64,000 bases of DNA from Clostridia bacterium (GCA_045545475.1 JAZQAZ010000010.1:64001-128000); one strand, 5' to 3'. Positions 56,819 through 58,090 are shown, counted from the first letter of the stretch. Made by a program: numbers and translations. The notes: generated by a model not told the origin, from the letters alone.

Positions 56819-57541
56819 ATGTTGAATATATACGGATATGTAAGGGTTTCTGCAGTGGACCAAAACGAAGCAAGACAGCTTCTTGAAATGCGGAGACTTG
56901 GAATAAAGTCAGAAAATATTTTTATAGATAAACAATCCGGCAAGGACTTTAACAGACCTGAGTATTTAAGACTGATAAAACTGTTGAAAAAAGGAGATTT
57001 ACTGTATGTAAAAGCGATAGACAGACTAGGCAGGAATTACAAGGAAATTCAAGACCAATGGCGAATTATTACAAAAGAAATGGAGGTTGACATTGTTGTT
57101 ATAGATATGCCTTTGCTTGACACAAGAGTATATAAGGATTTGATGGGTACATTCATTGCTGATCTTGTCCTTCAGGTACTTTCGTTTGTTGCACAGAATG
57201 AGCGTGAAAACATCAAAAAACGTCAGGAAGAAGGCATAAAAGCAGCAAAGCTCCGAGGTGTAATATTTGGACGTCCTGTAAAAGTGCCCCCGGATGACTT
57301 TGCACACATAGTCGGAAGATGGGAAAGCGGTCAGATTTCAGCACAGGATGCAGCACGGCTCAGTGATATGAGTATAGCCACATTTTATAGACGGCTTCGA
57401 GAGTTTCGAGACAATAAAAAATCACTATCAAAAGGTACACATTTTGATAGTGATTTTTTTTGCTTTCTTTTAGGTTCAAATGGCTCAAACCCCTTGAATT
57501 TACTAGAATATTATATCAAAAAACTCAATTTTTGTCAATGA
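56819..57541 (+). CDS. Serine recombinase (resolvase/invertase family)
   Basis: [25 protein letters not shown] and C-terminal HTH (ATFYRR). Confidence 0.93.
57425..57450 (+). promoter_or_regulatory. hix-like 26-bp recombination site (left)
   Basis: CTATCAAAAGGTACACATTTTGATAG. Confidence 0.75.
57510..57538 (-). promoter_or_regulatory. Consensus sigma-A promoter inside the putative invertible segment
   Basis: Minus strand TTGACA-17-TATAAT. Confidence 0.8.
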
Positions 57542-57580
57542 AACCAAGTGATAATTTACAAATAAGGATTTTTACAGGTT

Positions 57581-57606
57581 TTATCAATTAGTGTACCTTT
57601 TGGTAA
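57581..57606 (-). promoter_or_regulatory. hix-like 26-bp recombination site (right, inverted)
   Basis: Minus strand TTACCAAAAGGTACACTAATTGATAA; 12-bp core CAAAAGGTACAC identical to the left site. Confidence 0.75.
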
Positions 57607-57634
57607 ACCTATATGGAGGTGAGAACATTCGGGA

Positions 57635-58090
57635 ATGAATAAATCAAAAATTCGGTGTACTTTTGCCGGGCACAGTGAGATTCATAACTCAAATCTTGTT
57701 GAAGAAATAAAGGCTACTGCAAAAGAATTGATTATCGAAAATGGTGTTAATGAGTTCTGGGTAGGTCATTACGGTGACTTTGATCATTATGCCGCAAAAG
57801 CAGTAAGGGAACTCAAGCGGGAGTATGACATAGAGCTTGTACTTGTAATTCCATATCTTACAAAGGAAATCGAAGAATACAAAGAAGACTATTATAAAAA
57901 TTTTGATGCGATAATTATGGCAGACATACCCCAAACAACACCTACAAAATTAAGAATTATAAAAGCAAATCAGTATATGGTAAATGAGTCTGACTACTTG
58001 ATTTGCTATGTGAAAAATACTTGGGGAGGAGCTGCGAAGACATTAGAATATGCAAGTCGTAAGAAAAAAACAATTTACAACTTAGGATAA
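57635..58090 (+). CDS. SLOG/DUF1273 (YspA-like) protein
   Basis: CTFAGH, G..GDFD..AA, N.YMV..SD..ICY...GGA..T..YA. Confidence 0.78.
   Translation: MNKSKIRCTFAGHSEIHNSNLVEEIKATAKELIIENGVNEFWVGHYGDFDHYAAKAVRELKREYDIELVLVIPYLTKEIEEYKEDYYKNFDAIIMADIPQTTPTKLRIIKANQYMVNESDYLICYVKNTWGGAAKTLEYASRKKKTIYNLG

Follow-up and report, generated by a model that had tools for sequence, protein, structure and literature searches.

A small serine recombinase gene, a short DNA segment flanked by inverted repeats, and a gene encoding a SLOG-family protein lie side by side in a 64,000-nucleotide stretch of DNA from a Clostridia bacterium (the whole stretch is referred to below as the window). The segment carries a strong promoter that points away from the SLOG gene. 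This arrangement raises the question of whether the locus is a genetic switch, i.e., whether the recombinase turns the promoter around and thereby starts and stops expression of its neighbor. Here, we describe the anatomy of the locus, its counterparts in other genomes, and the explanations that compete to account for it. Judged from sequence comparison, the locus is probably a self-contained phase-variation cassette, in which a Sin-like recombinase would invert a promoter segment that controls the SLOG gene.

The anatomy of the locus is observed directly. The recombinase ORF (56819–57541, plus strand) encodes 240 amino acids, and its likely promoter (56779–56787, plus strand, read from the sequence) consists of an extended −10 element (TG-n-TATAAT) and a −35 too weak for the promoter scan to have called it. 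The left crossover site (IRL, CTATCAAAAGGTACACATTTTGATAG) lies at 57425–57450 and the right crossover site (IRR, TTATCAATTAGTGTACCTTTTGGTAA) at 57581–57606. Each has a 12+2+12 bp structure, and the two centers, AC at 57437–57438 and GT at 57593–57594, are mutual reverse complements. The sites bound an invertible interior of 130 bp (57451–57580) that contains a sigma-70-type promoter with a TG extension (TTGACA-17-TATAAT; 57510–57538, minus strand), matching the consensus at 12 of 12 positions in the promoter scan. Four such perfect promoters occur in the window, where 0.02 are expected, and the interior promoter is one of them. Beyond the right site, a GGAGG ribosome-binding motif (57615–57619, plus strand, read from the sequence) precedes the ATG of the SLOG gene (57635–58090, plus strand) by a rather long 15 nt. 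The locus thus has the defining layout of an inverton, with inverted repeats enclosing a promoter that adjoins a recombinase gene. A preliminary description of this DNA had listed two inverted 26-bp sites around 130 bp, an adjacent serine recombinase, a SLOG/DUF1273 gene, and a perfect promoter directed away from that gene, with the switch “currently OFF”. All of these elements are present: the ORF that starts at 56819, upstream of the sites, has Resolvase and HTH_7 domains, and the promoter runs on the minus strand from 57538 to 57510, facing the recombinase gene rather than the SLOG gene, a direction that corresponds to the OFF state for the cargo.

The cargo is a 151-amino-acid YpsA/YoqJ-type SLOG (DUF1273) protein, which scores 35.3 bits against PF06908 (cut-off, 27.7). 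Its 659 homologues are named DUF1273 or YoqJ-like in their sources. An AlphaFold model of the protein (pLDDT 93.2) has the SLOG Rossmann-like fold, and the best fold match is Bacillus subtilis YpsA (2nx2, TM 0.72), followed by ShosA and DprA; together with the profile score, the fold places the protein in the YpsA clade. The signature motif of this clade is given as GxD/E (PMC6459960). Among 37 homologues of the SLOG protein, Gly47 is nearly invariant and Asp50 is invariant; the acidic residue falls opposite the Glu of YpsA, but with G-x-x-D spacing in an ungapped alignment. The protein matches no PADLOC family, and ShosA is a fold neighbor only. According to PMC6459960, overproduction of B. 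subtilis YpsA inhibits cell division, and members of the clade are predicted to bind ligands of the NAD or ADP-ribose type.

The enzyme is a small serine recombinase, with matches to Resolvase (PF00239, 8.8e-27) and HTH_7 (PF02796, 4.9e-5), the latter at 23.8 bits, exactly at the cut-off. The closest solved structure is that of Sin (2r0q, E 2.6e-30), followed by gamma-delta resolvase (5.9e-21) and Gin (3uj3, 1.3e-15). Ser10 aligns with Ser9 of Sin, the DRLGRNY motif aligns as well, and the catalytic motifs are intact. Hin, Gin, Cin, and Pin are not the nearest sequence relatives, since Sin and gamma-delta are closer, and the Mpi family model (NF009949) gives only 39 bits against a cut-off of 272. 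No PADLOC family matches the recombinase. In the site consensus, the middle 8 bp read GGTACACC (center AC), identical to the core of Sin site I. The label “hix-like” that the sites had first been given holds for their architecture (26 bp, 12+2+12), but the enzyme is nearer to Sin than to Gin, and the core is that of Sin site I.

By itself, the inverted repeat in the window is only modestly beyond chance, and its significance comes from comparative data. A repeat search recovered inverted arms of 24 nt (57426–57449 and 57582–57605) that are 83% complementary and 132 nt apart. The 12-mer CAAAAGGTACAC has two exact copies in the 64 kb, at 57429–57440 (plus strand) and 57591–57602 (minus strand); with one mismatch allowed, the expectation is 0.29 matches, and two are reached in 2 of 100 shuffles. 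Separately, a site-like degenerate palindrome at 56487–56512 was considered as a third site; its in-register center is CA, and it was dropped as a partner.

The comparative data come from a scan that used the recombinase as query against species-representative genomes and identified 590 relatives. The best 80 of the 590 were kept; these share 60–94% identity with the window recombinase and are nearly all from Clostridia. Together with the window, they form the set of loci that was searched with a strict site motif, allowing at most 3 mismatches in 14 positions. Site pairs lie directly 3′ of the recombinase gene, 125–223 bp apart, in 48 of the 81 loci (window included), and all four half-sites share a common consensus, TCAAAAGGT. 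A relaxed scan of the other 33 loci revealed eight further short pairs (L009, L010, L042, L051, L064, L068, L079, and L061), as well as long pairs in L008 (1578 bp) and L072 (802 bp). Six of these 33 loci have no more than 152 nt of sequence 3′ of the gene.

The conservation of the sites and the covariation of their centers are likewise direct observations. Although pairs were chosen by their flanking positions alone, the two centers are reverse complementary in 48 of 49 pairs. The most frequent center types are GT/AC (30 pairs) and AC/GT (12 pairs), and the remainder are AA/TT (2), TT/AA, CT/AG, GC/GC, and AT/AT (1 each). Covarying centers are exactly what would be seen in inverted sites that exchange strands at a 2-bp overlap. 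The distances between centers are also far from continuous. Across the 48 loci, they fall at 125–128 bp (6 loci), 135–139 bp (24), 146–148 bp (7), 156–160 bp (5), 166–169 bp (2), 176–178 bp (2), 188 bp (1), and 223 bp (1), with nothing in the gaps. The steps are of ~10.4 bp, with a Rayleigh R of 0.75 at a period of 10.3–10.5 bp; the loci are related to one another and the statistic ignores kinship, so its P value is not trustworthy. Of the eight short pairs that the relaxed scan added, six have spacings within these clusters; a spacing of 170 bp is 1 bp above one of them, and a spacing of 159 bp is inside the 156–160 bp band. The empty gaps across seven spacing clusters point to a putative helical-phase requirement, as expected for synapsis over a very short loop.

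Homologous loci are found in both orientations, a direct observation that supports the ON/OFF reading put forward in the preliminary description. We called orientation by scoring for a consensus promoter anchored at the ends of the segment, with the −10 ending 13–20 nt from a site; this procedure was used instead of promoter scoring that included the half-sites, which mis-called some loci, and orientation by MAFFT direction-adjusted alignment of the interiors also proved unreliable. In 27 loci, the −10 ends 15–18 nt from site 1, with the promoter facing the recombinase. In five loci (L016, L017, L033, L057, and L058; scores 8.5–11.5), it ends 15–17 nt from site 2, with the promoter facing the cargo. 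Fourteen of the 48 loci received no call, and two of the seven “+” calls (the window and L014) are low-scoring artefacts. The window belongs to a clade (window, L001–L004, and L006) that has a second layout, in which the promoter is 49–60 nt from site 1.

The clearest single case is provided by L008, from a Faecalibacillus faecis isolate, compared with L009 and L010. The nucleotide identity of L008 to these two loci is 91–93% up to site 1 and 78–80% from site 2 onward, and its promoter segment (~120 bp) matches theirs in reverse. The inner half-sites of L008 are swapped relative to those of L009 and L010, exactly as inversion predicts. The L008 segment also carries a 1.43-kb insertion. On a recombinase tree of 41 sequences (35 OFF and 6 ON; the 40 loci with no clear orientation were left out), the ON state requires six changes, and well-supported branches make at least four of these unavoidable; three of the ON loci have an OFF locus as their sister. 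With shuffled labels, the average is 5.7 changes, meaning that orientation carries no phylogenetic signal.

The ends of contigs provide a further line of support for switching. Five of the 80 contigs end within 75 nt 3′ of the recombinase gene, compared with 0.53 expected from the lengths of the contigs (P = 2e-4), whereas the control on the upstream side found one contig. The breaks fall inside the inner half of site 1 in L005, L015, and L037, and at the start of site 2 in L029. The simplest reading is that these are assembly forks at an inverton.

In the window, the left site is embedded in an extended palindrome (57416–57461, identified by a terminator scan) that is preceded by an A-run and followed by a T-run, and that resembles a bidirectional intrinsic terminator. 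The hairpin has 18 pairs and a loop of 8. Its dependence on orientation is observed directly when 71 nt around the left site are folded: the energy is −23.9 kcal/mol in the OFF orientation and −3.5 kcal/mol after in silico inversion. A leftward transcript from the interior promoter meets the same IRL hairpin, followed by a U-run. The bidirectional terminator-like hairpin at IRL thus exists only in the OFF orientation, and inversion would dismantle it. In 27 of the 33 loci with a recombinase-facing promoter, the site-1 hairpin is more stable as observed than as flipped, with mean energies of −17.6 and −9.5 kcal/mol, respectively; in three of five ON loci, the flipped state would have the more stable site-1 hairpin. 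Orientation dependence of the hairpin across recombinase relatives is a general trend, not a universal one. A search of Rfam, with gathering and E-value thresholds, found nothing relevant to the switch, and the hairpin gave only chance microRNA-like matches.

These features suggest how the cassette would work. Recombinase dimers would bind the two inverted 26-bp sites and cut at the 2-bp centers, AC and GT, inverting the segment of 156 bp between centers. In the OFF state, the strong promoter would fire toward the 3′ end of the recombinase gene and its transcript would meet the left site after ~50 nt. The left-site hairpin, with U-runs on both strands, would terminate the recombinase mRNA as well as the transcript from this promoter, and the SLOG gene would be left without a promoter of its own. 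In the ON state, transcription from the promoter would cross the right site and enter the SLOG gene, giving a leader of ~107 nt, and the terminator hairpin would be taken apart, such that recombinase transcripts could read through too. The expected outcome is that the YpsA/YoqJ-type nucleotide-binding SLOG protein would be made in part of the population. We infer that the window copy would still flip, that cleavage would take place at the central dinucleotide, as for Sin and Hin, and that a DNA-bending helper would be needed.

Whether the window copy would still flip is the point at which the strongest competing explanation enters, namely that the locus descends from a working inverton and has since decayed or locked, with the SLOG gene silent or expressed in some other way. 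Three features favor such decay. First, the recombinase ORF runs 105 nt beyond the center of the left site, which is seen in the window only among 48 loci; the recombinase stops within the site in L033, L070, and L030, and at least 12 nt before the center in 44 of the 48. The catalytic and HTH domains end near position 57421, and with no stop codon ahead of the left site the reading frame continues, such that the site and the invertible segment code for the tail of the protein. The ORF encodes 240 amino acids in the present orientation and 218 after in silico inversion, and the tail in the OFF state, at 39 amino acids, could impair the enzyme. Second, according to a count matrix, three positions of the IRR inner half-site that are otherwise strongly conserved deviate from the family consensus, a departure common to the window and L001 alone. 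Third, all six members of the window clade are OFF.

The comparison with L001, the closest relative, argues in the other direction. The two loci share a block from 56777 to 58090 at ~85% identity overall (86.6% for the recombinase gene, 82.4% for the interior, and 81.6% for the SLOG gene), with the interior in the same orientation in both. Against this background, the left and right sites are each identical at 26 of 26 positions, which argues for continued constraint and adds to the support for a switch. That the unusual inner half of IRR is conserved in L001 argues against simple decay. The promoter hexamers are perfect, and identical in the window, L001, L002, and L003, and the catalytic motifs of the recombinase are intact. 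Finally, site 1 of L005, which is outside the clade tree, is the same as that of the window over the 22 nt visible before the contig ends inside it. On balance, we consider a locked switch to be rather unlikely.

The limits of the cassette bear on what the switch would control. The neighborhood is a defense island that includes PbeA, a type IV restriction enzyme, a GmrSD-like protein, two Fic proteins, and a Macro-domain protein. Its boundary is formed by an integrase next to a tRNA-Ser (62335–62426), in agreement with the mobile-island context proposed at the outset. The downstream RNA array, which the early description had named as a possible further target of the switch, lies outside the cassette: the stretch in common with L001 stops precisely at the SLOG stop codon. 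The array comprises four units (58120–59100) with an aligned TG-n-TAAAAT box, which we read as a putative extended −10 promoter; the promoter scan called only the promoter of unit 1. The units are absent from L001 and hence are not part of the cassette, whose only components are the recombinase gene, the inverton, and the SLOG gene. No terminator was seen between the SLOG stop codon and RNA unit 1, and an ON-state transcript would probably extend into unit 1 and stop at that unit's terminator.

The island, with its integrases, also lends some plausibility to a second explanation, in which a mobile element uses the enzyme as its resolvase and the role of the sites is not promoter inversion but excision or the resolution of cointegrates or multimers. 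Indeed, the nearest solved relatives of the recombinase are the resolvases Sin, gamma-delta, and Tn3. Searches of plasmid and phage collections returned only distant, partial-gene recombinase matches (64–70% identity) and no cassette, and the plasmid matches are annotated only as recombinase family proteins. However, the sites are inverted, not direct, and only 125–223 bp apart; a scan of 48 loci for accessory half-sites found no recurrent extras within 150 bp of the pairs; the segment contains a promoter with fixed geometry; and the cargo varies from locus to locus. Resolution or excision is thus very unlikely to be what these sites are for. The weakest alternative, that nothing inverts, the left palindrome being the recombinase terminator, the right repeat a chance match, and the promoter a source of antisense or small RNA, can point to the terminator score of the left site and to a 12-mer repeat that is only modestly improbable on its own, but it is already contradicted by the comparative data (a site pair in at least 56 of 81 loci, covarying centers, helical spacing, both orientations, and a right site perfectly conserved in L001) and strikes us as extremely improbable.

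If the locus is a phase-variation cassette, its relatives indicate what such cassettes carry. We scanned the first and second ORFs downstream in the relatives with Pfam, covering 68 of the 85 ORFs listed; the other 17 are short, all but one being <110 amino acids. Surface-type cargo includes BspA-type leucine-rich repeat, SLH, cohesin, NPCBM, and VWA proteins. Other cargo includes BREX BrxA/BrxB, methyltransferases, a HEPN protein, helicases, a nuclease, glycosyltransferases, MBOAT, CsrA, and TnpB-like proteins, and YpsA-type cargo is found in L001 and L002. The leucine-rich repeat, SLH, cohesin, BREX, methyltransferase, HEPN, helicase, and glycosyltransferase cargo belongs to the usual phase-variable classes.

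A broader interpretation can be offered more tentatively. The relatives might constitute a large family, unnamed within our searches, of portable, horizontally moving phase-variation cassettes in gut Clostridia and their relatives, with the recombinase encoded in at least 590 species-level genomes. It is possible, though short of probable, that in this family a resolvase-type, Sin-like enzyme has come to act in cis as an invertase and needs only two bare 26-bp sites on a loop of 125–190 bp. As a further tentative element, the loop may measure whole helical turns, and a single inversion may switch the promoter and an orientation-dependent bidirectional terminator together. We also suggest, with similar reserve, that the cassette attaches to surface, defense, and mobile-element genes, and that it moves between families. 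Invertible promoters driven by serine recombinases are already known, and switches of this type are widespread in gut Clostridia; the bare sites, the helical spacing, the site-embedded terminator, and the wide horizontal spread may be undescribed. Literature searches led to general inverton surveys, and Clostridia-dominated inverton groups 139 (tied to a tyrosine recombinase) and 125 are named in PMC11892184. The supplements of PMC5903667 contain no matching site motif, and a literature text search for variants of the motif retrieved only unrelated primer sequences. Apart from the supplements of the main surveys, the literature searched yielded no description of these family-level features; should supplementary data of inverton surveys already list the cassettes, the anatomy described here would be all that is gained.

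Several consequences would follow from the phase-variation reading. Probably no more than a fraction of cells make this YpsA/YoqJ-type SLOG protein of the defense island, and genetic ON and OFF states would offer a handle on the biochemical role of its protein family. The recombinase and its site pair form a compact system from Gram-positive anaerobes that seemingly works on a very short loop with no accessory sites, and the cassette family bears on how serine recombinases may be controlled without Fis or a site II. The cassettes could also help to explain the heterogeneity of surface and defense genes in gut Clostridia, and could possibly serve as a small genetic switch.

Each of the known systems resembles the cassette in part. 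With Hin/hix and Gin/Cin/Pin, the cassette shares a small serine recombinase and 26-bp sites with 12-bp inverted half-sites and a 2-bp asymmetric center, and, as in those systems, inverted sites of 12+2+12 bp flank the segment. An A-tract of the TATCAAAA type forms the outer half-site, as in hix, and inversion, as for Hin/hix, would shift a promoter relative to a fixed gene. Segments inverted by Hin and Gin are about 1–4 kb long and carry genes, whereas the window segment is 130 bp, contains only a promoter, and leaves the recombinase gene outside. To our knowledge, Firmicutes have no Fis, so a Fis-bound enhancer is unlikely. The core sequences of hix and gix are given in Table 1 of PMC3985619, which also prints the Sin site I core and lists the beta recombinase (six) as a resolvase/invertase. 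Sin, acting at resH, is the best sequence match (2r0q) and shares the site core GGTACACC. Unlike the enzyme studied here, Sin works on direct repeats with an accessory site II; the window sites are inverted and no extra half-sites were found, meaning that the likeness to the Sin/beta type extends to enzyme similarity and crossover core, and not to a site II with direct repeats. Both Sin and beta need a non-specific DNA-bending protein such as Hbsu (PMC3985619). In Sin, F52 and R54 link the site I and site II complexes (PMC2428073). The aligned residues of the window recombinase are Leu and Lys, which fits a presumed absence of site II and proves nothing.

The Mpi system and other Bacteroides promoter invertons likewise combine a serine recombinase with short promoter segments. 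Coyne et al. are said to have described, in 2003, how Mpi inverts short promoter-bearing segments ahead of genes for surface structures. Mpi works in trans on many sites, whereas each cassette described here has its own enzyme in cis. A parallel to the orientation-dependent hairpin is the fimS/FimE switch of E. coli: Joyce and Dorman reportedly found, in 2002, that its orientation decides how the recombinase transcript ends. The fimS system, however, relies on tyrosine recombinases and a switch of 314 bp, and its terminator is Rho-dependent, whereas in the cassette the crossover site is itself the intrinsic hairpin.

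The recombinase gene of the switch extends into the DNA that it is presumed to invert. There is no stop codon in its reading frame ahead of the left site, and the C-terminal tail of the protein (57422-57541) is therefore encoded by the invertible DNA. The length of the recombinase would thus depend on the orientation of the switch, with 240 aa in the present orientation versus 218 aa after inversion. In L001, the closest relative, a stop codon immediately precedes the site.

A repeat search of the window identified five copies of the motif AGAGGTGGAGC: three copies, two forward and one reversed, lie upstream of the recombinase (56458-56613), and two reversed copies lie further downstream (58583-58596 and 58875-58888), in the third and fourth units of the tandem RNA array described below. 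There is also an imperfect inverted repeat of 43 nt (56651-56693 versus 58821-58863). Together, the AGAGGTGGAGC copies and the inverted repeat bracket ~2.2 kb in which the recombinase, switch, and SLOG gene lie together with RNA units 1 to 3. At 56487-56512, ~300 bp 5′ of the start of the recombinase gene, is a palindrome that resembles a degenerate switch site, with arms of the TATCAAAA type; it sits within a hairpin made by two of the AGAGGTGGAGC copies. We considered this palindrome as a recombination partner of the two switch sites, and ruled it out because its in-register centre is CA, meaning that it is unable to recombine with them.

Near-identical recombinases are found in a Coprobacillaceae isolate (L008, Faecalibacillus faecis) and in metagenome-assembled genomes of Lachnospiraceae/Clostridia (L009/L010), and the recombinase tree is not congruent with taxonomy. 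The cassette seems to move horizontally. The invertible segment of L008 (4625-6088) carries an insertion of 1.43 kb just upstream of the promoter −35 element. This insertion is flanked by a direct repeat of ~17 nt, and holds an ORF that is at most 486 aa long and lacks a Pfam match. At two other loci, L033 (4584-6050) and L067 (4792-6096), the first gene after the inverton encodes a TnpB-like protein with a Cas12f1-like TNB domain; the promoter of L033 points towards this gene. Ten of the 14 homologue clusters closest to the SLOG protein (81-94% identity) are known only from contigs of <3 kb. Such short contigs would be consistent with assemblies breaking on either side of the SLOG gene, at the inverton on one side and at a repeat array on the other, although other causes are possible.

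The array downstream of the SLOG gene (58120-59100) consists of four tandem RNA units. Each unit has a 5′ tandem pair of GGTAAGCAGTT, giving eight copies in the array versus 0.8 expected in the window. A TG-n-TAAAAT box aligns across all four units, and we read it, from its sequence, as a putative extended −10 promoter; among the four units, a promoter scan of the window called only that of unit 1. Units 1 and 2 are closed by a terminator hairpin; the 3′ parts of units 3 and 4 are longer and different. A single homologous unit is found at L006 (6305-6438), downstream of another cassette of the same family, with base changes in both arms of the terminator stem. A search of Rfam with the units returned no match, and they possibly represent an unnamed family of small RNAs or leaders.

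A defence island occupies 42000-56300 and 59740-62426. It encodes a PbeA-like PLD-helicase, a Macro-domain protein, a GmrSD-like protein, two Fic proteins, and an Mrr-type restriction enzyme split over two ORFs. A Xer-like recombinase, an HTH_17 protein, and an integrase adjoining tRNA-Ser(CGA) (62335-62426) mark the end of the island.

Elsewhere in the window, known RNA motifs include a THF riboswitch (20214-20324; 76.8 bits) and a ZMP/ZTP riboswitch (11028-11104; 61.2 bits), the latter just downstream of one of the window's four perfect promoters. The xerDC RNA motif is matched below threshold at 59487-59606 on the forward strand (42.3 bits against a gathering score of 72.5), with E = 1.3e-5 when 361 nt were searched. 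This match lies directly 5′ of the gene for the Xer-like tyrosine recombinase (59740-60633). Relative to the known motif, the conserved loops are retained and one stem is absent.
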